Source: a virus
Taxonomy: Duplodnaviria; Heunggongvirae; Uroviricota; Caudoviricetes
Virus record (IMG/VR): IMGVR_UViG_2529292723_000011
DNA: 43,489 nt
Strand: one strand, 5' to 3'
The notes below the pieces were generated by a model. It searched no databases, had not been told where the DNA came from, and saw nothing but the letters and a program-made list of their open reading frames with translations. The position numbers and the translations under genes are program-made. Every line of letters starts with the position of its first letter. Within the stretch, counting starts at the first letter, position 1. Positions 1 to 13,721 of the stretch are shown piece by piece.

Positions 1-744
<744 letters not shown>

Positions 745-942
745 TTTCTTTCCTCTGTTATGCCATCACCCGCGCTCACCTGGACAGTATGCAGCGGAGA
801 CTGAAGCGCCGCAATGCAGGCTTGCCGTGTTGTGAGGGAAGGAGATTTTGGCTTGGTTGGATCTTTACGTGTTGCCTGTAGGCGGCCTGTTCGTATCCAG
901 TTGGTGGCGGTTGGTCTGGATATCTTAAGAAACTGACAGGCC

Positions 943-1221
943 TCATCGAGTGTGAGGCTGTATGATTCCATGGTTACCTCTGCTTTTTGAACGCATGTCA
1001 CGTAACTTCTTAATGTGTTCTGCCGTTTCGATCTCTTCTGCTATCCGATCTGCATCAGCTTTATTCACAGGTTCAAAGTCATGATTAAAGCGGAACATGC
1101 TGGCGATACATGTTCTGCCTTTTCGGATGTAGTGAACTTTGTTGTGGGTAGAACGCAGGATTTTGCAGGGAGTGCCGTGGTGGTCGACGTACCAGGTGTT
1201 AGGAAAAATGATTCTGAACAT
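943..1221 (-). CDS. Hypothetical early-left protein (92 aa)
   Basis: ORF in compact co-directional operon between the TraR-like gene and xis; no family recognised. Confidence 0.4.
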   Translation of the reverse strand: MFRIIFPNTWYVDHHGTPCKILRSTHNKVHYIRKGRTCIASMFRFNHDFEPVNKADADRIAEEIETAEHIKKLRDMRSKSRGNHGIIQPHTR

Positions 1222-1268
1222 TTTTACACCTCAGTTGGACGATGTTGAAATTTGCTGCTTTGAGGCCA

Positions 1269-1487
1269 TCACAGTCCCCATTGTTTGTTCTTAAGTTCGA
1301 TCTCCTCCTGGCAACTTGCACAAGTCCGACAACCCTGAACAGCCAGGCGTCTTCGCTCATCTATCGGATCGCCACACTCACAACAATGAGTTGCGGATAC
1401 AGTCTGGTAGTTCAGACGACGCATTTTTATTGCTGTATTGCGCTGTAATTCTTCGATTTCTGATGCTGAATCAATGATGTCTGCCAT
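1269..1487 (-). CDS. TraR/DksA-family C4 zinc-finger protein
   Basis: 72 aa with paired Cys motifs CCECGDP...GCRTCASC typical of phage/plasmid TraR-like zinc fingers. Confidence 0.65.
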   Translation of the reverse strand: MADIIDSASEIEELQRNTAIKMRRLNYQTVSATHCCECGDPIDERRRLAVQGCRTCASCQEEIELKNKQWGL

Positions 1488-1585
1488 CTTCCATTAATCC
1501 CTGAATTGTTGGTTAATACGCTTGAGGATGAATGCGAACAATAAAAAAGGAGCCTGTAGCTCCCTGATGATTTTGCTTTTCATGT

Positions 1586-1900
1586 TCACCGTTCCTTAAA
1601 GACGCCGTTTAACATGCCGATCGCCAGGCTTAAATGAGTCGGTGTGAATCCCATCAGCGTTACCGTTTCGCGGTGCTTCTTTAGTACGCTACGGCAAATG
1701 TCATCGACGTTTTTATCCGGAAACTGCTGTCTGGCTTTTTTGATTTCAGAATTAGCCTGACGGGCAATGCTGCGAAGGGCGTTTTCCTGCTGAGGTGTCA
1801 TTGAACAAGTCCCATGTCGGCAAGCATAAGCACACAGAATATGAAGCCCGCTGCCAGAAAAATGCATTCCGTGGTTGTCATGCAGCCTCCCGACGGGCAA
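1586..1900 (-). CDS. Hypothetical protein (104 aa; true start may be internal)
   Basis: ORF co-directional with flanking early genes, overlapping the methyltransferase 3' end by 23 bp; no family recognised. Confidence 0.35.
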   Translation of the reverse strand: MPVGRLHDNHGMHFSGSGLHILCAYACRHGTCSMTPQQENALRSIARQANSEIKKARQQFPDKNVDDICRSVLKKHRETVTLMGFTPTHLSLAIGMLNGVFKER

Positions 1901-2435
1901 GAATCCTTGAGCCGAACGCCATCAACTCTCCACGATCAACAGTCGTAAAGTGGCAGTGTGTACGGGGGTATGGGTGCCAGATAATGAGCATCGAGCCTTT
2001 ATTATTTCCACTGACGGGTTTCTCAGTGAGTGGGTTAATAAATGCCAGTCGTCCTGCCGTGATGAATCTGACCTCACTGGCGGTTTGTATCGCTTCATGA
2101 AACCATCCGACAGATGTGTCAGCAGGCAATAACATTACACATCCCACACTACTGAATTTGTTTTCAGTGGCTGCCTTTTTCACAAAAGGGGAAATATTGC
2201 TGTATGGTGGATTCAACCAGACATAACCAGAGGCATATCCCATTGCTTCAGGCCATGAAGTGGTTAATGTGTTCTGCTCCTGTGAGATAAAAAGCCGACA
2301 TAGTCGGTTTTTTTCGCTGGCGGCAGCATCAAGTTGAAAAACGAACTCTGCATTAAGCGCAGCAAAAATCTCTGGTGGTGTGCGCCAGCTGTCGCGATGT
2401 TCGGCAGGAGTATTGCTTCCGGTGAAATCAGTCAT
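1878..2435 (-). CDS. Phage DNA N6-adenine methyltransferase (Dam-like)
   Basis: 185 aa containing the NPPY (DPPY-class) catalytic motif in ...YVWLNPPYSNISPF...; typical position in lambdoid early-left operons. Confidence 0.8.
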   Translation of the reverse strand: MTDFTGSNTPAEHRDSWRTPPEIFAALNAEFVFQLDAAASEKNRLCRLFISQEQNTLTTSWPEAMGYASGYVWLNPPYSNISPFVKKAATENKFSSVGCVMLLPADTSVGWFHEAIQTASEVRFITAGRLAFINPLTEKPVSGNNKGSMLIIWHPYPRTHCHFTTVDRGELMAFGSRILARREAA

Positions 2436-2589
2436 ACAGCCCCCGTTTATTATTTATCTCCTCAGCCAGCCGCTGTGCTTTCAGGGGATTTCGGATAACA
2501 GAAAGGCCGGGAAATACCCAGCCTCGCTTTGTAACGGAGTAGACGAAAGTGATCGTGCCTACCCGGATATTATCGTGAGGATGCTTCAT
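2428..2589 (-). CDS. Small hypothetical protein (53 aa), below the ORF-track size cutoff
   Basis: Hand translation of the minus strand: ATG at 2589-2587 gives [53 protein letters not shown], stop at 2428-2430. GGGGAG lies about 9 nt upstream; start overlaps the exo stop (ATGA) and the stop overlaps the methyltransferase start. Confidence 0.35.
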
Positions 2590-3266
2590 CGCCATTGCTC
2601 CCCAAATGCAAAACCAATTTCAGCCAGTGCCTCGTCCATTTTTTCGATGAACTCCGGCACCATCTCGTCAAAACTCGCCATGTACTTTTCATCCCGCTCA
2701 ACCACGACATAATGCAGGCCTTCACGCTTCATACGCGGGTCATAGTTGGCAAAGTACCAGGCATCTTTTCGCGTCACCCACATGCTGTACTGCACCTGGG
2801 CCATGTAAGCCGACTTTATGGCCTCGAAACCCCCGAGCCGGAACTTCATGAAATCCCGGGAGGTAAACGGGCATTTCAGCTCAAGGCCATTGCCGTCACT
2901 GCATAAACCATCGGGAGAGCAGGCGGTGCGCATACTTTCGTCGCGATAGATGATCGGGGATTCAATAACATTTACGCCGGAAGTGAACTCAAACAGGGTT
3001 CTGGCGTCGTTCTCGTACTGTTTTCCCCAGGCCAGCGCTTTAGCGTTAACTTCCGGAGCCACACCGGTGCAAACCTCAGCCAGCAGGGTGTGGAAGTAGG
3101 ACATTTTCATGTCAGGCCACTTCTTTCCTGATCGGGGCTTTGCTATCACGTTGTGAACTTCTGAAGCGGTGATGACGCCGAGCCGTAATTTGTGCCATGC
3201 ATCATCCCCCTGTTCGACAGCTCTCACGTCGATCCCGGTACGCTGCAGGATAATGTCCGGTGTCAT
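2586..3266 (-). CDS. exo: Lambda exonuclease (Red alpha), 226 aa
   Basis: [54 protein letters not shown]... is near-identical to lambda Exo as recalled. Confidence 0.95.
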
Positions 3267-4048
3267 GCTGCCACCTTCTGCTCAGTGGCTTTCTGTTTCA
3301 GGAATCCAAGAGCTTTCACTGCTTCGGCCTGTGTCAGTTCTGACGATGCGCGAATGTCGCGGCGAAATATCTGGGAACAGAGCGGCAATAAGTCGTCATC
3401 CCATGTTTTATCCAGGGCAATCAGCAGAGTGTTAATCTCCTGCATGGTTTCATCGTTAACCGGAGTGATGTCGCGTTCCGGCTGACGTTCTGCAGTGTAT
3501 GCGGTATTTTCGACAATGCGCTCGGCTTCATCCTTGTCATAGATACCAGCAAATCCGAAGGCGAGACGGGCACACTGAATCATGGCTTTATGCCGTAACA
3601 TCCGTTTGGGATGCGACTGCCACGGCCCCGTGATTTCTCTGCCTTCGCGGGTTTTGAATGGTTCGCGGCGGCATTCATCCATCCACTCGGTAACGCAGAT
3701 CGGATGATTGCGGTCTTTGCGGTAAATCCGGCATGTGCAGGATTCGTTGTCCTGTTCAAAGTCCATGCCGTCAAACTGCTGGTTTTCGTTGATGATGCGG
3801 GACCAGCCATCAACGCCCACCACCGGAACGATGCCGTTCTGCTTATCGGGGAAGGCGTAAATTTCTTTCGTCCACGGATTAAGGCCGTACTGGTTGGCGA
3901 CGATCAACAATGCGATGAACTGCGCATCGCTGGCATCACCTTTAAATGCCGTCTGGCGAAGAGTGGTGATCAGTTCCTGTGGGTCGACAGAATCCATGCC
4001 GACACGTTCAGCCAGCTTCCCAGCCAGCGTTGCGAGTGCAGTACTCAT
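3263..4048 (-). CDS. bet: Lambda Bet (Red beta) single-strand annealing protein, 261 aa
   Basis: [66 protein letters not shown]... matches lambda Bet; start overlaps exo. Confidence 0.95.
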
Positions 4049-4053
4049 TCGTT

Positions 4054-4350
4054 TTATACCTCTGAATCAATATCAACCTGGTGGTGAGCAATGGTTTCAA
4101 CCATGTACTGGATGTGTTCTGCCATGCGCTCCTGAAACTCAACATCGTCATCAAACGCACGGGTAATGGCTTTTTTGCTGGCCCCGTGGCGTTGCAAATG
4201 ATCGATGCATAGCGATTCAAACAGGTGCTGGGGCAGGCCTTTTTCCATGTCGTCTGCCAGTTCTGCCTCTTTCTCTTCACGGGCGATCTGCTGGTAGTGA
4301 CGCGCCCAGCTCTGAGCCTCAAGACGATCCTGAATGTAATAAGCGTTCAT
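4054..4350 (-). CDS. gam: Gam, RecBCD inhibitor (98-aa short form)
   Basis: [60 protein letters not shown]... matches the lambda Gam core. Confidence 0.9.
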
Positions 4351-4425
4351 GGCTGAACTCCTGAAAATGGCTGTGAAAAAATCGCCCGCGGAATGCCAGG
4401 CTGATTCGGAAAACAGGAAAGGGGA

Positions 4426-4716
4426 TTAGTGATTCAGACCGTTGCCGCGTCCGTCGAGAAAAACTTCCACGAGCAAGTCACGGGTATAAGTGCGCTCAAT
4501 GCCGCGATGCAGATAAAGTCGTCCGCGTAAATTAGCTGATGCAGTCCAGGTACCATCTTTGCGTTTGACCAGCATTCCTGGCATGACCGCACCGCGATTA
4601 ACGGTCTGCGTTCCGTAATGTTGATGAACCATAAAAACTCCTGCCCGTAAGCTGGGCTGCTGAACATATAAAGACTTCTGCGCGTATTCAGGCGGTGGAT
4701 GGCCGCCGGTTGTCAT
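4426..4716 (-). CDS. Hypothetical protein (96 aa), first gene leftward of the putative pL/OL region (lambda N position)
   Basis: ORF with GAGGCGG about 7 nt upstream of the start; no arginine-rich N-like motif; function not recognised. An overlapping 77-aa alternative frame (4434-4667) has a poorer start context. Confidence 0.35.
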   Translation of the reverse strand: MTTGGHPPPEYAQKSLYVQQPSLRAGVFMVHQHYGTQTVNRGAVMPGMLVKRKDGTWTASANLRGRLYLHRGIERTYTRDLLVEVFLDGRGNGLNH

Positions 4717-4899
4717 AACTAAGCCGCCTCGTTGAAGCGACTAAGGTATGAAATGTTGAGTTGATTTCAGCTGGTCACACCGACGTTCACGCGTCCGTTT
4801 CATCCCTCGCACTCCCCGAAGCCTGCTGAAATTCAAGCTGCGGATCTAAGCGGTCATCGCAACGGTGAATCAGGTAGTTGCCGTATCGTTGTGTTGTTG

Positions 4900-4990
4900 C
4901 GATGAACTTATTTAAAACTATAGTTGTTTTATCGTCAACAACAAAAGTTGTTTTATTGGTTGTTTTAGATATAACTGGTTGTATTTAGGA
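4900..4990 (-). promoter_or_regulatory. Putative OL/pL operator-promoter region
   Basis: AT-rich block with palindromes AACAACaaaaGTTGTT and AAAACTATAGTTGTTTT sharing the GTTGTT/AACAAC half-site with the cI-cro intergenic region; lies between the terminator of the 287-aa gene and the leftward early genes. Confidence 0.4.
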
Positions 4991-5075
4991 TGGATTTATT
5001 TTGTGACTTGCATCGCACAGCGATAACTGAAGCGAGGTCGTGGTGGTTTTTTGAACGGTTTGTGTGATGAGGGGA

Positions 5076-5105
5076 GGCAAAAGAAAACCCGGCACGACGG
5101 CCGGG
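5076..5105 (-). terminator. Rho-independent terminator immediately after the 287-aa gene
   Basis: Minus-strand reading CCCGGC-cgtcgt-GCCGGG followed by TTTTCTTTT, starting 5 nt after the stop codon at 5110-5112. Confidence 0.6.
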
Positions 5106-5109
5106 GAAA

Positions 5110-5973
5110 TCATTTCGCATCTACAATAAATAACCTGTTTATCTGGCCTTTTTTAACAGTAGCCTTTGCGGTTATAGTGAATACTGCAGATGGATCACCT
5201 TTGGTTGATATATATGCACTAAGAGCTCTAATATACGGGTTATTCTTCTTTCCTGCAGCTGGATCGCTAATTTCAGCAGTGATTCTCTTTTTTGAGTCAT
5301 CACCATCTAAAATTATTTTAGCTGTCATATTTTGTGCATCAAATTCTGTAAGAAAAGCACGATACTCACGAAGACCGAGAACTTCATCATCATCAAGCCT
5401 ATCAATTTCAGCTTTATCTCTCTCGTTAACTTTTAGAAGGCAGCCGTCAACATTTGTTGCAACACTTATCTGATCGCAAGTATTACCAATAGGTGATACT
5501 GCCTGCCTTACAGAGGGGCGAAGCTCTACAGCCATTCGGTCAATCAAAGAGATCAACTTATCAATGGTTCCAGCATCCTTGTTTCCTAGTGCCTCTATGG
5601 CCTTTTCAAGTGACTGCTGCAAAGCTTTCATTTCATCTTTCTTGTTAGAATTTCTCGCAAAAATATATTGTAGTATTGCGCCAAGTATAGTTGCGGCGAT
5701 CCCCGAGAACAACTGGTTCTGAGTGGCGAAGTTAAGAACTGCTTCAAGAGTAAAGCAGTTAGCTTTTGCTTCGCGTGCGTAAACCTTAACTTCCTGATAA
5801 TTAATGTATTTACTATATTTTTGTGTAACAGAGAAAGAAGCTGCTGTTGAGAGAACTTTAGAAAAACCCTTTAGGGATTCTCCTAGGCAGTTCAAATCTA
5901 TTTCATGATTTAAAGCATCTTTTCCGTCATACCTAAGAGAGATTTTTATATCCTGTAAAGCGTCACAATCCAT
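5110..5973 (-). CDS. Protein of unknown function (287 aa) in the Rex-equivalent position downstream of cI; candidate superinfection-exclusion or abortive-infection factor
   Basis: Start 67 bp after the cI stop on the same strand, with GAGAG upstream; visibly AT-rich relative to flanks; contains a hydrophobic stretch [19 protein letters not shown]; no similarity to RexA/RexB/SieB as recalled. Confidence 0.6.
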
Positions 5974-6039
5974 AAATCGCTCTCGTCTAATTCTAATTAA
6001 ATTTACTATCCCCTAAACGACTCATCAGCACAGTACTGA

Positions 6040-6729
6040 TTATCCATGTTTCCTGTACGTCTGGGGCATGCTCCCAATAACCTTACCGAAGATGAACACC
6101 CGGTTCATCTCGTCTTTCTCGATCGGGTCCCACGGTGAGTAGCTCTTGTTATCAGAGATAACCAGCAGCTTATCCTTCATCATTTGCAGGCGCTTTACAT
6201 GGGCTGTGTCGTCGTACAGAAACGCATAGATACCATCACCGTCGAAAGATTTAACCGTGATATCAACGAACAGCAGATCCCCTGGTTCGATCGTTCCTGA
6301 CATGCTGTCACCACGCACGTTAATGATGCGGATATTTTCCGCCTTCCTACCATCGAACATGTGACGAGCATCGTCAAACGAGTACTCAACCGAGCGTAGA
6401 ACTTCTACAAACTCACGGTTGATGACTCCCGGCCCAGCACTGACTTCTATATCAAGAACGTCAATCTTGAAGTATTTGGAATGGCTGACAGTTGATTGTA
6501 TTGGTTGCACTGTACTGTCTGACATATTTCCAACGCCAGAAGATAACCATTCTGCGCGCACACCCAAAGCGTTCGCGATCTCCACGATTTTAGTTGTTTG
6601 ATTAGCTTTCCCTGTTTCGATTTTCTGAATAGCAGCCTGGCTAACCCCGACCAAATCCCCAAGCGCCTTTTGTGTAAGGCCTCGCGCTAATCTGGCTTCT
6701 TTAAGTCTTTCTGAGAGTGTTGTTTTCAT
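6040..6729 (-). CDS. cI: CI-like prophage repressor (HTH_XRE N-domain plus LexA/S24-type autocleavage C-domain); start taken at MKTTLSERL (track ORF extends to 6795)
   Basis: N-terminal LTQKALGDLVGVSQAAIQKIETGK helix-turn-helix; Ala-Gly cleavage-site candidate in EVSAGPG; GDSM serine and VKRL lysine motifs of the S24 peptidase fold; divergent from the cro-like gene. Confidence 0.85.
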   Translation of the reverse strand: MKTTLSERLKEARLARGLTQKALGDLVGVSQAAIQKIETGKANQTTKIVEIANALGVRAEWLSSGVGNMSDSTVQPIQSTVSHSKYFKIDVLDIEVSAGPGVINREFVEVLRSVEYSFDDARHMFDGRKAENIRIINVRGDSMSGTIEPGDLLFVDITVKSFDGDGIYAFLYDDTAHVKRLQMMKDKLLVISDNKSYSPWDPIEKDEMNRVFIFGKVIGSMPQTYRKHG

Positions 6730-6833
6730 AGTCCAAATGTACAACCAAGGTTTTATTCCATCAAACGAAAATGGTTGTTGACTAAAAACAACCATAGTTT
6801 TAATCTTGATTCAAATTAACCACGGAGGTTGTT
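6730..6833. promoter_or_regulatory. Putative OR/pRM/pR divergent operator-promoter region
   Basis: 104-bp intergenic between divergent cI and cro; contains the 25-bp palindrome ATGGTTGTTgactaaaAACAACCAT (6771-6795) and AACCAAGGTT; GGAGG RBS before cro. Confidence 0.6.
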
Positions 6834-7064
6834 ATGAACCCAGCTATCAAAACAGCGATCAATATCGTTGGTTCACAAAAGAAACTGGGCGCTGCTTGCG
6901 AAGTTTCACAGCAGGCCGTCTATAAGTGGCTTCACAACAAAGCAAAGGTATCCCCTGAACATGTCGGCAGCATTGTTACGGCTACTGGTGGAGTAGTGAA
7001 GGCATACCAGATTCGCCCGGATCTTCCGAAGTTGTTTCCACACACCGAAAAGAACGCAGCTTAA
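6834..7064 (+). CDS. cro: Cro-like HTH regulator (76 aa)
   Basis: Divergent from cI; HTH segment QKKLGAACEVSQQAVYKWL. Confidence 0.75.
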   Translation: MNPAIKTAINIVGSQKKLGAACEVSQQAVYKWLHNKAKVSPEHVGSIVTATGGVVKAYQIRPDLPKLFPHTEKNAA

Positions 7065-7133
7065 ATTTCCATTTCACGCTCTTTAACAATAAGCAATCAA
7101 CTTAACAGTCAATTCAAACTAAAGGAGTCAATT

Positions 7134-7673
7134 ATGCAACCACTTACATACCAACAGACTAGCGGATTTAGCCCGACTGCGGTGATAAATCGTTCTCAAA
7201 CAAAACAGGTGCCAGACCACGAAAAAATCCGTGATGCCGTCCGCGCCTGGTCGGCTGTAGATAATCAGGATGTCGTTGCCGCACTCATTGTGAATGAGTA
7301 TCGGGAGCAGGGCGACGGCACCATCGATTTCCCTGATGATGTCAGCCGTGCACGCCAGAAGCTGTTCCGCTTCCTCGATAACAAATTCGATTCTGAAAAA
7401 TACCGAAATAACGTGCGTGAACTGACCCCGGCAATTCTGGCGGTACTACCGCTGGAATATCGCGGTTACCTGGTTGAGCAGGATAGCTTCATGACTCGGC
7501 TGGCTGAAATGGAAAAGGAACTCAGTGAGGCAAAACAGGCTGTCATTCTCAACGCACCACGCCACCAGAAACTGAAGGAAATTAGTGAAGGTATTGTGTC
7601 GATGTTTCGTGTGGACCCGGATCTGGCTGGTCCATTGATGGCGATGGTTACCACCATGTTGGGGGCAATATGA
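7134..7673 (+). CDS. Putative CII-like lysogeny regulator (179 aa; family assignment uncertain)
   Basis: Position between cro and O where cII sits in lambdoid phages; longer than lambda CII, possibly the CP-933-type CII family; stop overlaps the O start (ATGA). Confidence 0.45.
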   Translation: MQPLTYQQTSGFSPTAVINRSQTKQVPDHEKIRDAVRAWSAVDNQDVVAALIVNEYREQGDGTIDFPDDVSRARQKLFRFLDNKFDSEKYRNNVRELTPAILAVLPLEYRGYLVEQDSFMTRLAEMEKELSEAKQAVILNAPRHQKLKEISEGIVSMFRVDPDLAGPLMAMVTTMLGAI

Positions 7674-8689
7674 CAGGCTCAGAAATGGCGAAAGCCGGTC
7701 TGCGGGAACAGAGCCGACTTTCAGGCGCAAATCGTAACGCACTCATTGCGGGAGGAATTATGGCAAACACTGCTGAGATATTCAATTTTCCAGTGCCGGA
7801 TGTGGCACAAAAGGAGCCGCGCGTGGCAGATCTCGATGATGGTTATACGCGCATTGCAAATGAGTTGCTGGAAGCTGTGATGCTGGCCGGATTAACACAG
7901 CACCAGCTTCTGGTCTTCCTGGCTGTCATGCGCAAAACATATGGCTTTAATAAAAAACTGGATTGGGTGAGCAACGAGCAACTTTCCGAATTGACCGGGA
8001 TATTGCCGCACAAGTGTTCTGCTGCAAAAAGCGTTCTGGTAAAGCGTGGGATTCTTATTCAGAGCGGGCGGAATACCGGCATTAATAATGTGGTCAGTGA
8101 ATGGTCAACATTACCCGAATCAGGTAAGAAAAATAAAGTTTACCTGAAAGAGGTAAATTTACCTGAATCAGGTAAAAAAAGTTTACCCAAATCAGGTAAA
8201 GACGTTTACCCGAATCAGGTAAACACAAAAGACAAACTAACAAAAGACAATATAAAACCTTATTCGTCCGAGAATTCTGGCGAATCCTCTGACCAGCCAG
8301 AAAACGACCTTCCTGTGGTGAAACCGGATGCTGCGATTCAGAGCGGCAGCAAGTGGGGGACAGCAGAAGACCTGACCGCCGCAGAGTGGATGTTTGACAT
8401 GGTGAAGACCATCGCGCCATCAGCCAGAAAACCGAATTTTGCAGGGTGGGCTAACGATATCCGCCTGATGCGTGAACGTGACGGACGTAACCACCGCGAC
8501 ATGTGCGTGCTGTTCCGCTGGGCATGCCAGGACAACTTCTGGTCCGGTAACGTGCTAAGTCCGGCCAAACTCCGCGACAAGTGGACCCAGCTCGAAATCA
8601 ACCGTAACAAGCAACAGGCAGGCGTGACAGCCAGCAAACCAAAACTCGACCTGACAAACACAGACTGGATTTACGGGGTTGATCTATGA
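7670..8689 (+). CDS. O: Replication initiator O (lambda O-like); start may instead be the internal MANTAEIFNF at 7760
   Basis: ...VADLDDGYTRIANELLEAVMLAGLTQHQLLVFLAVMRKTYGFNKKLDWVSNEQLSELTG... matches the lambda O N-terminal domain; iterons and AT-rich spacer lie inside the gene as in ori-lambda. Confidence 0.9.
   Translation: MTGSEMAKAGLREQSRLSGANRNALIAGGIMANTAEIFNFPVPDVAQKEPRVADLDDGYTRIANELLEAVMLAGLTQHQLLVFLAVMRKTYGFNKKLDWVSNEQLSELTGILPHKCSAAKSVLVKRGILIQSGRNTGINNVVSEWSTLPESGKKNKVYLKEVNLPESGKKSLPKSGKDVYPNQVNTKDKLTKDNIKPYSSENSGESSDQPENDLPVVKPDAAIQSGSKWGTAEDLTAAEWMFDMVKTIAPSARKPNFAGWANDIRLMRERDGRNHRDMCVLFRWACQDNFWSGNVLSPAKLRDKWTQLEINRNKQQAGVTASKPKLDLTNTDWIYGVDL
8111..8222 (+). repeat. ori iterons: five direct copies of about 17 bp, TTACC(C/T)(G/A)AA(T/A)(C/G)AGGTAA, followed by an AT-rich stretch (8223-8262)
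   Basis: Copies at 8111, 8140, 8159, 8183 and 8206, each an internal inverted repeat TTACC..GGTAA; within the O linker region as in lambda. Confidence 0.85.
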
Positions 8690-9408
8690 AAAACATCGCC
8701 GCACAGATGATTAACTTTGACCGTGAGCAGATGCGTCGGATCGCCAACAACATGCCGGAACAGTACGACGAAAAGCCGCAGGTACAGCAGGTAGCGCAGA
8801 TTATCAATGGTGTGTTCAGCCAGTTACTGGCAACTTTCCCGGCGAGCCTGGCTAACCGGGACCAGAACGAACTGAACGAAATCCGCCGCCAGTGGGTGCT
8901 GGCTTTCCGGGAAAACGGGATCGCCACAATGGAACAGGTTAACGCAGGAATGCGCGTAGCCCGTCGGCAGAATCGACCATTTCTGCCATCACCCGGGCAG
9001 TTTGTTGCATGGTGCCGGGAAGAAGCATCCGTTACCGCCGGGCTGCCAAACGTCAGCGAGCTGGTTGATATGGTTTACGAGTATTGCCGGAAGCGTGGCC
9101 TGTATCCGGACGCAGAGTCTTATCCATGGAAATCAAACGCGCACTACTGGTTGGTTACCAACCTGTACCAGAATATGCGGGCCAATGCGTTGACTGACTC
9201 GGAATTACGGCGCAAGGCTGCCGATGAACTTGCCCATATGACTGCGAGAATTAACCGTGGTGAGGCGATTCCCGAGCCAGTTAAACAGCTTCCGGTTATT
9301 GGTGGTAAGCCGCTATCCCGTATACAAGGATTGGCAAAGTTGGCTGAGATTCGCGAGAAGCACGGACTGAGAAGACGTAAACAATTAACGGGAGTGAAGC
9401 TAACCTGA
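8686..9408 (+). CDS. P: Replication protein P (DnaB helicase loader), 240 aa
   Basis: MKNIAAQMINFDREQMRRIANNMPEQYDEKPQVQQVAQIINGVFSQLLATFPASLANRDQNE... is near-identical to lambda P over most of its length; the C-terminal tail differs. Confidence 0.9.
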   Translation: MKNIAAQMINFDREQMRRIANNMPEQYDEKPQVQQVAQIINGVFSQLLATFPASLANRDQNELNEIRRQWVLAFRENGIATMEQVNAGMRVARRQNRPFLPSPGQFVAWCREEASVTAGLPNVSELVDMVYEYCRKRGLYPDAESYPWKSNAHYWLVTNLYQNMRANALTDSELRRKAADELAHMTARINRGEAIPEPVKQLPVIGGKPLSRIQGLAKLAEIREKHGLRRRKQLTGVKLT

Positions 9409-9452
9409 ACTACCTTCAAGACACATAAAACCTTTCCCCCAGAAAATATAGT

Positions 9453-9677
9453 TCATCCTGCGGCATCAACCAGACCGTAAACATTCTGACAAAGCAGGGC
9501 GATCTGGTCGATGTCAGCAATATCTAGCGAACGATTCACTACCGATTGGTAACCGAAGAGGAAATCTCTTGGCACAAAAGCACCAATCAGATTTTCGATG
9601 ATGGCCCCCAAGCCCGGTGATGACGCGAATTTTACTAGCCTACGAGAGGAACGGAGCATGAAGACAGCACCGAGCAC
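9453..9677 (-). CDS. Orphan 74-aa ORF at the boundary of the AT-rich island; possible gene remnant
   Basis: ORF-track entry only; no recognisable family or clear start context. Confidence 0.2.
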   Translation of the reverse strand: MLGAVFMLRSSRRLVKFASSPGLGAIIENLIGAFVPRDFLFGYQSVVNRSLDIADIDQIALLCQNVYGLVDAAG

Positions 9678-9753
9678 AGTGTAACTATTCGATTTTTTTC
9701 TGTTTGATTTTTCGACATACTACATTATATAGCTCGATATCCTTTCATTTTAC

Positions 9754-10722
9754 TTATTCAATTAACGGTACTTGTTTGTTGCAGAATACTAATATTGCAT
9801 CTTGAGTAAGTTTTTTATGCATATGCTTTAGCGGCTCAATGTTAGTCTCGTAACCGAAAGTAGCGAAAAGAGTTGGTTCTATAATGAAATTTTCTTCATA
9901 AGCTTTTAGATCAAATGCTCTCTTTGCAATTAATCTAACTGCTTTCTTTCTAATGCGTGAATTATATCTATTCTCTATGCTAAGTTTAGCCATGTTTTCA
10001 TCGATGTTGTTTTTTTGTTTTTTTAGTATAATTTGAATGTGATCATCATCAATTTGGCCATCTCTATATATATAATCAATGTCATAATTAAAATCAAAAA
10101 GCTGAGTGTCATTTACACCTTCAAGAAAAGGATTTGAAAATGGGCTCATGATCGGATCGAGTGATTTTTTATAAGTACTATTGCATTTAGTGCAGCTAGG
10201 AATTAAGTTAAATAAACTAAAGGAGATCAACGGATATTTGTACTTAGGTATGAAATGATCAAATGCTGGCCTGTAGCTAGTACCTGTATGGTCTTCTACT
10301 TGTTCAATTTCTTCACTGTTGCAATATGGGCATATGCTAATGTCTAAAAAACTGTTCAATTGATACGCTGTTTCTCTATCAATAAGTGAGTATTTAAATA
10401 TTTCAGAAATATTTTTAACCCATGATGGAAATAACTTAATGGTATTTTCCTTTAAAGGACCACCATTCTTGATACTTATAAGATTAAGAATCTTATCTCT
10501 TAAACTAGATAATTTTTGTGGTGAGAAATGTGTATTTAATATATCCTCAAGTATTAGGCTTTGTGTAGTTTGAGAGAAAGATGTGATTATTTTGATGGCA
10601 TGTGCTAGTTCATTATAAACTATTTTTTTGTTTTCTTTTGTTTTTAAAGGTAATTGTAGGTTTGTTAATGGTTGTAAATTTAAGTGCCTTAAAAAATAAT
10701 CAGGAGAATAGTACTCACACAC
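9754..10722 (-). CDS. HNH (His-Me finger) motif protein, 322 aa; putative nuclease effector of a two-gene ATPase plus HNH module (Septu PtuB-like)
   Basis: Motif ICPYCNSEE...FDHFIPKYKYP...NLIPSCTKCNSTYK (CxxC, DH, N, CxxC); AT-rich; co-directional downstream of the ATPase. The only available start is GTG at 10720-10722 with a weak RBS. Confidence 0.7.
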   Translation of the reverse strand: MCEYYSPDYFLRHLNLQPLTNLQLPLKTKENKKIVYNELAHAIKIITSFSQTTQSLILEDILNTHFSPQKLSSLRDKILNLISIKNGGPLKENTIKLFPSWVKNISEIFKYSLIDRETAYQLNSFLDISICPYCNSEEIEQVEDHTGTSYRPAFDHFIPKYKYPLISFSLFNLIPSCTKCNSTYKKSLDPIMSPFSNPFLEGVNDTQLFDFNYDIDYIYRDGQIDDDHIQIILKKQKNNIDENMAKLSIENRYNSRIRKKAVRLIAKRAFDLKAYEENFIIEPTLFATFGYETNIEPLKHMHKKLTQDAILVFCNKQVPLIE

Positions 10723-10784
10723 AATTGGGTGTTTGTTGTATATTTTGATGATTATATTTTTTAATCGTTTGGGTTTTGAAAAAA

Positions 10785-10946
10785 CTAATTTTCTGATAGT
10801 TTTTTGTTGATTGTATTTAGAAACTCTACTTCATCGGGAGTAATGTTCAGTAACTTCCTCTGCTTCACGCGTTTATTAACTTTGCTTACTATTTTAGAAA
10901 AGGATATTTTTACATCAACATTGAAGTCTTTGTTTATTTTTATCAT
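10785..10946 (-). CDS. Small basic ORF (53 aa) between the ATPase and HNH genes; possible third component or a displaced N-terminus of the HNH protein
   Basis: Hand translation: ATG 10 nt after the ATPase stop gives MIKINKDFNVDVKISFSKIVSKVNKRVKQRKLLNITPDEVEFLNTINKKLSEN; below the ORF-track cutoff; different frame from the HNH ORF. Confidence 0.3.
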   Translation of the reverse strand: MIKINKDFNVDVKISFSKIVSKVNKRVKQRKLLNITPDEVEFLNTINKKLSEN

Positions 10947-10955
10947 TTTTTTTAC

Positions 10956-12743
10956 TCATTTCTCAAAAGAATCTGTTTTATCATTGTTTTTGTTTAACTT
11001 CAGATCAATAAGATTTATGAGAAGTTTATTTTTAATTTGTGATAGTATGGTTTTTTGATGTTTATTTAAATTACCGTCATCTGAGTTTTTTATTATTGAG
11101 TTTAGATAATTATGTGCGTGCTGTCCTATTGTAGCATCAATAAAAAAACCATTTATATATAATTCTGATATGGTTGCTCCGAAACCAAACTCTACTTTCT
11201 TAGTATAGGTTCCTTGATTATGATCTCTTTCAAGATATATTATATCTGATGGCAAAAAATCACTTGCGAGTATAGGGGAGTGAGTTGTAAATACTAATTG
11301 AATATTTTTACTTTGTTTATATCTTAATGTTAAATCTATAATTTCTGAAAAAATAACTCGTTGCCATTCAGGGTGTAGATATAAATCACACTCATCTAAT
11401 AATATTATAATATTTTTGCTGTTGCTATGTTCTATAGAATCATAAAGTTGATTGAAAAGGTTTAATTTTGCAAACTCTCCTGAACTAAGTGAATCCCAAC
11501 CATACTTAAATCGCGATGATACGCCATTTGGTAACCTATCAACTAATCTTATTAACTCCATAATCTGCTTTGGTTCTTCAACTGTGAAAGATAAACTATC
11601 AACTGGGTCTCTTGCTGTGTTTTCTAATATATCAGCTATATTACCTATAATGTCGGAGATATGTTCAGATAACATTTCTATTTTTGACTGAAATTTAACA
11701 TTAACGTTAAATTCATCTAAAGTCTCTAATATAGTTTTTGCTGGATCTTTTTCTTCAAGATACGCGCGACACAAGCAAAATAAATAAACAGTCTCACATA
11801 TGTCTTTAGGGATTTTTGATGTCTTGAGTAAATGCCATGTTATTGCAGGCAAAAGCATCAAGTAAATTATTTTGTGATATGAAAAGGTTGCGAGGAAATT
11901 TAATGATCTTTCTTTGTTAAAAATAATGCTAATAATAAAATCTTCATCGTAATCTATCCCATGATTGAGTATATCCACAAGTGAAATACCTAAAGAATCT
12001 AAATCACGTTCAATATATCTAGGGAGTTTATTGTTTTTAATTCTATCATTCAACGTATCAAAAAAGTATTCAATAGCTCCAAAAAGTCCTTTGTCACCAA
12101 TATCATTGTTTTTTATAATAGAATTTATTTTATATACTGGTGAGTTTTCTATTTCAAATTGAAATTTAGTATTAAGTCTTGATAAATTGTCTTTAGCCCA
12201 TGAACTGTGGTCTGAAAATGAAATTAATTGCTTGAGTAATTTCTTATTGCGTGTTTTACTGCCTTGCAAAAAATATGACAGTGATAAATCTTTAGAAATC
12301 GAATCGTTTTTTTTCTTTTTTTGTCCAACTAACATACTTTTGAGGTCGATTGTGTTATTTATCTTTATTAGATTGATTTTGTTTCTTCTAAAAAAATGTT
12401 CATTATTATCAATTAGTTCCGTTTGCATTTTGGATAATATTACAGGAGGTTTGCAATTGCTTGTGATAATTATAAGTTTATCATTTTCATTCCAGATGCT
12501 ATAACCGCTACCTTCAAAATCGTAAATAAAGCTACTAATGAAATCTAAAATTGATGACTTTCCAACACCATTTTTCCCTAAAATTAATGTACAGGGAATA
12601 TTGCTATAATAGTCACGACTTAAATCTTTCTTAGCAATTGTAAGGACGTTACCTTTATGGCTAAAGGTAAATTTACTTGAGGTGGGGAGGGACAGCTTAT
12701 TTAAACCTTTATAATTGTGGATATAAGTGTATATTAGTTCCAT
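10956..12743 (-). CDS. ABC/AAA_15-21-type ATPase, 595 aa; putative sensor/ATPase subunit (Septu PtuA-like)
   Basis: Walker A LILGKNGVGKSSILDF near the N-terminus; signature-like LSSGEF; Walker B IIILLDECDLYLHP; H-loop FTTHSP; very AT-rich; 520-bp AT-rich upstream leader (12744-13265). Confidence 0.8.
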   Translation of the reverse strand: MELIYTYIHNYKGLNKLSLPTSSKFTFSHKGNVLTIAKKDLSRDYYSNIPCTLILGKNGVGKSSILDFISSFIYDFEGSGYSIWNENDKLIIITSNCKPPVILSKMQTELIDNNEHFFRRNKINLIKINNTIDLKSMLVGQKKKKNDSISKDLSLSYFLQGSKTRNKKLLKQLISFSDHSSWAKDNLSRLNTKFQFEIENSPVYKINSIIKNNDIGDKGLFGAIEYFFDTLNDRIKNNKLPRYIERDLDSLGISLVDILNHGIDYDEDFIISIIFNKERSLNFLATFSYHKIIYLMLLPAITWHLLKTSKIPKDICETVYLFCLCRAYLEEKDPAKTILETLDEFNVNVKFQSKIEMLSEHISDIIGNIADILENTARDPVDSLSFTVEEPKQIMELIRLVDRLPNGVSSRFKYGWDSLSSGEFAKLNLFNQLYDSIEHSNSKNIIILLDECDLYLHPEWQRVIFSEIIDLTLRYKQSKNIQLVFTTHSPILASDFLPSDIIYLERDHNQGTYTKKVEFGFGATISELYINGFFIDATIGQHAHNYLNSIIKNSDDGNLNKHQKTILSQIKNKLLINLIDLKLNKNNDKTDSFEK

Positions 12744-13265
12744 TATATAACCAATCTCTTAAATATGAAAAAACATAATGGGGTGATAGGCGTATTTGAA
12801 AAATACACGCTACCGCCACCTAGCGTTAAGCTGGGAGTGTTATTTTTATATTTTACCCCAAGTATTTGTTTTATGCAATTGTATCATCACATCTTTTGAA
12901 AGTTTGCTTTCTAAATGTAATTGTAATTTTAAACGGGTTTAATTGTTTTAAAGTGTTTGGGTGATTTGTTTTTCGAGGTTGCCTTCATAAATTAAGAGAT
13001 AAAAACGTTGTAATGTATTTTTATATGAGTGAGCTAATAAATGAAATCTTGATTGAAAATTATAGGTTGGCGGTTACTTAAATTTGATTTTCCAAAATCA
13101 GATCGTCATAATTATCGCATCGGAGCCTGAACACCTCCGGTGACTTCTGCGCTAAACGGGGACGTTTATGCGCACATACAATCTAAACTCTCTTCTCCCT
13201 TCACAGATGCAGAAATGCACCTGCGATTCTTTGCATCCAACGTTTGACCTCTGCGGAGGTGAAGC

Positions 13266-13721
13266 GTGAACCTCCCACAAGACGGCATCAAATTACATCG
13301 CGGTAACTTCACCACTATCGGTCAGCAGATCCAGCCTTATCTGGAGGACGGAAAATGCTTTCGCATGGTGCTTAAACCGTGGCGCGAGAGACGCAGTCTT
13401 TCCCAGAATGCACTCAGCCACATGTGGTACAGCGAAATCAGCGAGTACCTCATCAGCAGGGGGAAAACGTTCGCTACTGCAGTATGGGTAAAAGATGCAC
13501 TCAAACACACATACCTCGGTTATGAAACCAAGGACTTGGTTGATGTCGTAACCGGCGAAATCACTACTATCCAGTCGTTACGCCATACCTCCGATCTTGA
13601 TACCGGAGAGATGTATGTCTTCCTGTGTAAGGTTGAAGCCTGGGCGATGAATATTGGCTGCCACCTGACTATTCCGCAGAGCTGCGAGTTCCAGCTGCTG
13701 CGCGACAAGCAGGAGGAGTAA
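13266..13721 (+). CDS. ybcN: YbcN-like nin-region protein (DLP12 ybcN homologue), 151 aa
   Basis: Position and size match DLP12 ybcN; motif [19 protein letters not shown]; followed by ninE, ybcO, rusA, ylcG, quuD in DLP12 order. Confidence 0.7.

Follow-up and report, generated by a model that had tools for sequence, protein, structure and literature searches.

A Septu-family cassette in the cargo slot of an enterotoxigenic Escherichia coli prophage, with a nuclease gene most likely inactivated by the loss of one base

Which kind of cargo sits between the replication gene P and the nin region of this prophage, and does the copy at hand still work? We ask this of a viral record of 43,489 nucleotides (IMG/VR IMGVR_UViG_2529292723_000011, Caudoviricetes; the window, by which we mean that whole stretch), in which an earlier look at the letters alone (the sequence-only reading) noticed an AT-rich island with an ATPase gene followed by an HNH nuclease gene, and proposed a defence operon of the Septu (PtuA/PtuB) kind. 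Over the island, the window is 100% identical to a lambdoid, DLP12-like prophage in E. coli ETEC-2264 (CP023349), an enterotoxigenic E. coli (ETEC). Our answer, to which we give a probability of about 0.72, is that the island is a horizontally acquired Septu-family cassette of the PDC-M62 subgroup, carried as cargo by an ETEC prophage, and that in the window copy the nuclease gene was recently inactivated.

The first gene of the pair, which we call A (10956..12743, minus strand), is intact and encodes a ptuA-like ATPase of 595 aa, of the ABC/SMC type and equivalent to PADLOC PDC-M62A by profile, Pfam and fold matches. Its Walker A motif GKNGVGKS (residues 56-63; 12555..12578, minus strand) and its Walker B motif ILLDEC (residues 446-451; 11391..11408, minus strand; ILLDECD with the next residue), the latter followed by a conserved DLYLHPEW motif and then by the H-loop TTHSP, are those that the sequence-only reading had picked out, and they withstand alignment. 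In 94 homologues G56, N58, G61, K62, S420, G422, D450, E451, H457 and H488 are invariant, and the set D450, E451, H457, P458 and H488 is invariant or nearly so. Walker A, Walker B, signature motif and H-loop are all intact, as in the AAA_15/AAA_21 ATPases of Septu.

Comparison with profiles and structures places A next to PtuA. The best PADLOC match is PDC-M62A (PDLC04734, expectation value (E) 4e-44), which aligns residues 1-570 to positions 1-548 of the 597 in the profile; it is followed by the models for PtuA, AriA, AbiLi and GajA, which match mostly on the C-terminal ATPase lobe. In Pfam, A scores 51.6 for AAA_21 (cut-off 27) and 44.4 for AAA_15 (cut-off 32.1). A phmmer search of A against PDB sequences gives 13 matches, nearly all of them PtuA chains, the weakest being an OLD-family endonuclease. 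The AlphaFold2 model of A (predicted local distance difference test, pLDDT, 80.9) has a C-terminal helical region with helices at 525-584. When this model is compared to the PDB with Foldseek, the first 29 matches are PtuA chains of retron I-A, and the Septu structures 8EEA and 8EE4 are among the first 50, as are AriA, condensin and OLD; the best matches, PtuA chains of retron I-A and Septu, have E 5e-9 to 1e-5. The predicted fold would thus be that of PtuA, helical insertion and C-terminal helical domain included, at template modelling (TM) scores of 0.3-0.4.

The second gene, B (9754..10946, minus strand), is a ptuB-like HNH nuclease gene equivalent to PDC-M62B, of 397 aa if unbroken, which a -1 frameshift turns into a pseudogene in ETEC-2264. 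Its catalytic core of the beta-beta-alpha-Me type, CPYCN...FDH...N...CTKCN (10180..10332, minus strand), is delimited by invariant columns and by PADLOC PtuB matches over the region. The sequence-only reading had warned that the HNH motif might prove degenerate on alignment. It does not: C206, C209, N210, D230, H231, N247, C255 and N256 are invariant in 96 homologues, and the HNH fold keeps its catalytic His and Asn and its Cys4 zinc ligands. The best PADLOC matches of B are PDLC04743 (PDC-M62B, 1.5e-33) and PDLC04741 (8.8e-26, from residue 1), followed over the HNH core by PDC-M01B and PtuB; the Pfam HNH model gives 19.6 bits, just below its cut-off of 21.4. A phmmer search of B against PDB sequences returned only a chance-level match (E 0.07), and a Foldseek search with the model of B returned no significant match. 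That model, predicted for the intact protein (pLDDT 92.6, predicted TM-score 0.87), consists of an all-helical N-terminal part of ~200 residues, an HNH core at ~205-260, and a helical C-terminal part. We therefore take B to be a complete PtuB fold with an extra N-terminal domain of ~200 aa in front.

Is the pair a real unit, or two genes that happen to be neighbours in one prophage? We built profiles from the alignments, running the scan of contigs with a 16-sequence alignment, and asked what lies next to A elsewhere. Among loci with a full-length A, found by protein look-up and in IMG/VR, B is immediately downstream in all 16 that are testable, its ORF in most cases overlapping or abutting that of A; a seventeenth sequence ends at A. 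In a collection of one genome per species, A and B are adjacent in 58 of 69 loci; where they are not, the contig ends or the ATPase match is weak. These loci span Enterobacterales, Vibrio, Pseudomonas, Pseudoalteromonas, Flavobacteriia, Bacteroidales, Streptococcus, Clostridia and others, that is, Proteobacteria, Bacteroidota, Bacillota and other phyla. One metagenome-derived viral contig has both genes broken. The two-gene operon, an ATPase gene directly followed by an HNH gene, is the arrangement of Septu, and with the PADLOC results it bears out the proposal of a Septu-like operon: PDC-M62A and PDC-M62B are the best matches of the two co-located genes, and PtuA and PtuB come next.

The sequence-only reading left it open whether the pair was a divergent or an undescribed variant. 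Divergent it is, in that the NCBIfam cut-offs are missed widely and B carries its extra ~200 aa, but undescribed it is not, since the cassette is already catalogued, in PADLOC as the candidate PDC-M62 and in PHROGs v4 as families of unknown function. Of these last, phrog_8939 is the ATPase, phrog_8644 is the truncated piece of B (322 aa, aligning to residues 76-397), and phrog_9626, which also matches a 53-aa open reading frame (ORF) of the window, is an N-terminal piece of 108 aa that aligns to residues 1-108 of intact B. Frameshifted alleles of B have seeded separate reference families! Distant homologues in the Bacillus cereus group are core members of PDC-M62 (E 2e-198). In a survey of that group, the PDC-M62 calls mostly fall on proteins also called Septu, PDC systems being unpublished candidates (PMC11811056).

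Why, then, does the window annotate as it does? The sequence-only reading saw a 322-aa HNH protein and, between it and the ATPase gene, a possible small ORF. The first of these (9754..10722, minus strand) exists and its HNH motif stands, but it is not a complete gene: it starts at a GTG and holds residues 76-397 of B. Nor is the small ORF (53 aa; 10785..10946, minus strand) a separate gene: it is the severed N-terminus of B, with 49 native residues followed by LSEN and a stop. All relatives examined have, behind the ATPase gene and overlapping or abutting it, a gene of 371-397 aa as called, or 395-398 aa from an upstream ATG; in the window there is a gap of 233 nt between the ATPase gene and the 322-aa ORF, and the stop of A lies 9 nt from the ATG of B. 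A DNA alignment with the Morganella orthologue finds the window short of one base in a run of seven A. The run is a T6 on the plus strand (A6 on the coding strand) at 10800..10805, with seven bases in intact alleles, and it spans the codons for K-K-T in the conserved motif KKTIRKLVFSKPKRL. Inserting one T yields a 397-aa protein identical to that of strain TW10828, and thus the 53-aa and 322-aa ORFs are two pieces of one gene. A third gene or antitoxin was also considered for the small ORF, and it was ruled out by the lack of a family match and by co-linearity with the N-terminus of intact B.

Alignment of the six complete E. coli genomes that carry the island divides them equally. In TW10828, EC38 and AR_0077 the run is T7, B is intact and its product is annotated with 397 aa; in the window's own strain ETEC-2264, in 90-9280 and in E2980 the run at 10800-10805 is T6 and the annotated product has 322 aa. 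Between TW10828 and the window this one base is the sole difference over 4,187 bp. The exact 322-aa product is found on ~200 contigs of many origins (NCBI, ENA and Logan assemblies) vs. ~400 for the intact forms, and the split is carried by three independently assembled complete genomes and by three IMG/VR contigs. Loci with the split allele differ by 3-6 single-nucleotide polymorphisms (SNPs) over 14 kb, and for intact copies whose ATPase is 100% identical the prophage background is another one (~770 SNPs). Because the split loci are near-identical and the intact copies belong to another background, the comparison of sequences points to a single clonal event.

A further homopolymer difference lies inside the ATPase gene. 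At 12307-12314 strain 90-9280 has an extra base in the T8/A8 run (T8 to T9), which cuts its annotated A gene to 1374 nt; the frameshift in B is present there too, and the combination suggests that the cassette is decaying progressively at its homopolymers.

What does the frameshift do to the system? We infer that the cassette in the window is most likely a recently inactivated, pseudogenised copy, because the GTG of the remnant lacks a Shine-Dalgarno sequence, because residues are lost from any product, and because the lost segment is conserved. The energy of the anti-Shine-Dalgarno duplex is +2.4 kcal/mol at the GTG of the 322-aa ORF, compared with -3.6 at the native start of A and -2.7 at the native start of B. 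Residues 50-75 of B are absent from any product of the window. Within the N-terminal domain, the lost segment (residues 1-75) is the part with the widest conservation, reaching proteins of the B. cereus group (E 2e-7), and in the confidently modelled structure it would form the first four helices.

It is quite unlikely, in our view, that the system is nevertheless still active in ETEC-2264, with the 322-aa remnant made by initiation at its GTG, by reinitiation, or through low-level -1 slippage of ribosome or polymerase on the A6 tract, or with both fragments cooperating, and with the ATPase bound through the C-terminal half. Such a remnant would keep the complete HNH core and the C-terminal region, by which PtuB of relatives binds PtuA; natural short forms of B exist, of ~300-340 aa beside long ones of ~390-415 aa; and a successful ETEC lineage goes on carrying the split allele. 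On the other hand, neutral loss in a clonal lineage would persist anyway, the natural short forms have a different N-terminal region of their own and are not simple truncations, and the segment lost here is conserved across phyla and belongs to a compact modelled domain. The GTG without a Shine-Dalgarno sequence and the missing residues 50-75 count against activity as well, and an A6 tract is short for efficient slippage.

Very unlikely, too, is that the cassette does not act against phages at all, and is either a selfish addiction or restriction-like module or the prophage's own nuclease, a DNA-processing or homing HNH enzyme. Pairs of an ABC ATPase and a nuclease do occur in OLD/AbiL-like and in restriction-associated contexts, A has weak matches to TIGR04435, the 'restriction system-associated AAA ATPase', and to AbiLi, and experimental data for this clade were not found. 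However, Septu PtuA and PtuB come out as the best matches, for both proteins and for both folds; the pair also occurs in chromosomal neighbourhoods of the defence type outside prophages, which argues against a function in the phage life cycle; and it is transcribed against the phage early operon, in a strain that tolerates its loss.

Could the homopolymer instead be a contingency switch, by which a potentially toxic defence system is turned on and off by phase variation? E. coli, Morganella, Citrobacter and one IMG/VR relative all have the A7 tract conserved at this site, a second homopolymer frameshift truncates the ATPase in 90-9280, and there is the metagenome-derived viral contig with both genes broken. 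We see a slim chance of this. The tract encodes a conserved KKT, for which AAA codons are what a gene of 29% GC would be expected to use; with 22 runs of 6 or more bases in the operon, chance should produce frameshifts at runs; the split alleles are clonal, with their 3-6 SNPs per 14 kb, which fits one event; and seven bases are fewer than is typical of the tracts of phase-variable loci. Finally, a sequencing or assembly error can be dismissed as a negligible prospect, even though long-read assemblies are prone to homopolymer indels and the six complete genomes differ by just such indels, given the ~200 contigs, the three independently assembled complete genomes and the three IMG/VR contigs that agree on the split.

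Several results weigh against our reading of the island as a Septu-family cassette with a dead nuclease gene, and we set them together here. The TM-scores of A to PtuA are low (only 0.3-0.4), and in sequence it resembles PtuA in the C-terminal ATPase lobe only. The curated NCBIfam models fail for both proteins (NF041760 PtuA, 48.5 vs. 500; NF041761 PtuB, 14.3 vs. 150), both models being equivalogs of retron Ec78, and the PADLOC PtuA and PtuB models match each protein in part, with scores below those of PDC-M62. Our literature search found no experimental work on the window's clade, with PDC-M62 named only as an unpublished candidate. A tblastn search with the ATPase found no carrier among the isolated phage genomes of INPHARED; the same search of plasmids gave one distant match in Pantoea. 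A promoter scan of 9300-13400 counts 23 promoter-like sites vs. 19.8 +/- 4.9 in shuffles, which is not above expectation, and the best -10 element overlaps the ATG. As to the loss of function, the remnant retains the entire PtuB-like half with the region that binds PtuA in relatives, short B forms occur naturally, and the truncated product, if translated by rare slippage or reinitiation, may have residual activity.

How does the cassette compare with known systems? To PDC-M62 it is alike in that this is the best profile of both proteins, over the full length of A, and in the two-gene order of A then B; it differs in that the window's clade is a distant branch (E only 1e-33 to 4e-44) and in that B is frameshifted in the window. 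With Septu type I (E. coli ATCC 25922, PDB 8EE4, 8EE7 and 8EEA; EcB88) it shares the operon of ABC-type ATPase and HNH nuclease, the conserved Walker A and B, signature, H-loop and HNH residues, predicted folds that lie nearest PtuA for A and nearest PtuB for B, and a modelled C-terminal helical region of A that resembles the PtuB-binding domain. In contrast to Septu type I, A has 595 aa vs. 465 aa in the PtuA chain of 8EE4, with the similarity in sequence limited to the C-terminal lobe, and B has 397 aa vs. 210-234 aa in solved PtuB chains, owing to its extra N-terminal helical ~200 aa.

The PtuAB pair of retron type I-A (Septu type II; Ec78/Eco7, Ec83/Eco4) provides the top-ranked structural matches for both A and B and the top phmmer matches in the PDB for A. 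However, the NCBIfam equivalog scores are far under their cut-offs, no reverse transcriptase (RT) is found among the neighbouring genes P and ybcN, and an Rfam scan of 9000-13600 gave nothing meaningful and no retron match. As there is no RT or non-coding RNA nearby, the cassette is a standalone Septu-like pair and not a retron. PARIS (AriA/AriB), Gabija (GajA) and OLD share the ABC/SMC-type ATPase fold with a helical insertion, and they give weaker profile and fold matches; their partner or fused nuclease is a TOPRIM, not an HNH, and they score lower than PtuA.

The known relatives suggest how an intact copy would work. Septu EcB88 requires its Walker A, Walker B and HNH residues, and cuts tRNA-Tyr in its variable loop (PMC13096335). 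In E. coli Septu, PtuA and PtuB form a 6:2 complex, ATP inhibits its nuclease, and the substrates of PtuAB vary by homologue, from tRNA-Tyr to single-stranded DNA to the nicking of plasmids (PMC12640716). PtuB, unstable alone, docks via its C-terminal region on the C-terminal helices of the PtuA dimer (PMC13376987). By analogy, an oligomer of A would scaffold B through the C-terminal helices of A, and the ATP-bound state would keep the nuclease inactive. Infection by another phage would then release the nuclease to cut nucleic acid (tRNA-Tyr, single-stranded or double-stranded DNA in the known relatives), such that phage replication would stop and the growth of the infected cell would be arrested.

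Where the cassette may depart from its relatives is the N-terminal domain of B. The C-terminal PtuB-like half is recognisable in 80 of 80 distant homologues tested, and the first 75-80 residues are recognisable in long forms of the B. cereus group (E 2e-7 to 1e-4); residues 81-200 are not recognisable in any of those 80. A full HMMER scan of 1.84 billion representatives of 50%-identity clusters finds residues 76-201 in only three clusters. This domain could be a candidate element for phage sensing or auto-inhibition, taking the role that RT and multicopy single-stranded DNA have in retron I-A. That the clade-specific helical domain of ~200 aa in long PtuB marks a mechanistically distinct Septu subtype is a tentative idea, and one that we regard as unlikely.

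One predicted protein, P0135 (487 aa, on an ENA contig of 2124 bp), joins Pfam domains PF25888 and PF07261 to a stretch that is 89% identical to 57% of B. The prediction may be chimeric, on a contig this short, or it may reflect another junction between island and replication module.

For any experiment, the state of the window copy matters. Cloning 9680-13265 from ETEC-2264, as the sequence-only reading advised, would most likely give no protection for the trivial reason that B is broken, and the family would be wrongly scored as non-protective; a repaired allele or that of TW10828 is needed. ETEC-2264 (A6, off) and TW10828 (A7, on) make up a natural isogenic pair, one base apart across 4.2 kb, and a ready-made test. 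If the intact allele defends, these would be the first functional data for PADLOC PDC-M62, and would show how an enlarged PtuB alters sensing or regulation in Septu.

We now turn to the prophage and its cargo slot. The gene order is a cI-like repressor gene, a cro-like gene, a YdaT-domain gene, an O-like gene, P, the island, ybcN-ninE-ybcO-rusA-ylcG-quuD, a porin gene and the lysis genes. Replication protein P (8686..9408, plus strand; from its ORF and the RefSeq annotation of the identical record) is the left flank, and ybcN (13266..13721, plus strand; from the same annotation), the first gene of the nin-region module, is the right flank. In megablast comparisons, homology to thousands of other E. 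coli lambdoid prophages stops at ~9307-9315, inside the 3′ end of P, and homology to other lambdoid prophages resumes at ~13081, upstream of ybcN. With the GC profile, these limits define a variable cargo segment at 9316..13080 (on no particular strand), made up of an alternative 3′ end of P, a spacer of ~47% GC, and the AT-rich island. The sequence-only reading had drawn the island at 9680-13265; an island is there, but the variable segment, from ~9315 to ~13080, reaches slightly further to the left and less far to the right. The full segment is found by megablast in only 6 of 5,426 complete E. coli genomes. Two other traits that first drew attention to the island hold: GC is 26-31% across ~9700-13000 (28.9% for the operon alone) vs. 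50-55% in the flanks, and A and B both run along the minus strand, against the direction of O/P and the nin genes.

The suggestion that the slot is a typical moron site also agrees with what sibling prophages hold between P and ybcN, which is unrelated cargo. In SCU-308, P is followed by a phosphoribosyltransferase-like gene and a NADAR gene; in EC958, by a 4.3-kb inverse autotransporter gene. The locus is one more example of the lambdoid P-to-nin slot as an exchangeable site for cargo and defence, and of the rapid decay of such cargo. As to the SCU-308 pair (retrieved locus 6692-8325), it includes a member of the NADAR family, it lies on the strand of the phage genes, and it could be another defence or counter-defence cargo.

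The window's clade comprises copies from E. coli, Morganella, Proteus, Citrobacter, Enterobacter and Serratia. The Citrobacter copy occupies the equivalent slot, from replication to nin, of another lambdoid prophage. The Morganella morganii copy (retrieved locus 3207-7066) is directly downstream of a pair formed by an OLD/TOPRIM ATPase and a UvrD helicase, with a transposase gene ~1.4 kb beyond. Copies in Shewanella and Pseudomonas are at ordinary chromosomal sites, and those in Bacillus are found among restriction-modification, PLD and UvrD genes. The Morganella neighbourhood looks like a small defence island.

Upstream of A is an AT-rich leader (12744..13080, minus strand, from the sequence). 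A GC-rich hairpin with a T-run behind it lies within this leader at 12807-12835, ~65 nt upstream of where the ATPase gene starts, and is terminator-like on both strands; it may be an attenuator, an insulator or a product of chance. Our scan lists the hairpin itself at 12807-12826 on the minus strand, and terminator-like counts in that scan are not above those in shuffles. To the right of the island, the conserved flank at 13083-13265 matches the phage 82 record X92588, among whose annotations, just upstream of the nin genes, are orf33, a possible site for the binding of a regulator, and -35/-10 signals; the island stops directly before this element. In the spacer of ~47% GC between P and the AT-rich island there is a small ORF on the minus strand (9453-9677; 74 aa from a GTG, 40 aa in RefSeq), which has no Pfam or PADLOC match and which, within the variable segment, is unlike the island in composition.

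Further away, in the identical RefSeq record (retrieved locus 1-3065), the integrase at ~1-745 of the window is split by IS100, an insertion sequence of the IS21 family with istA/istB, and being so split it probably leaves the prophage unable to excise. Beside the cI-like S24 repressor, in a rexAB-like position, is a 287-aa gene (5110-5973, minus strand) that matches Pfam DUF7946 and DUF7947 (3.8e-55 and 1.4e-18), phrog_5147 (unknown function) and, weakly, the PADLOC candidate PDC-S42 (1.5e-4). In SCU-308 the same position is taken by a HipA-family kinase and a DUF3037 gene, and it may be a second slot for cargo or defence.

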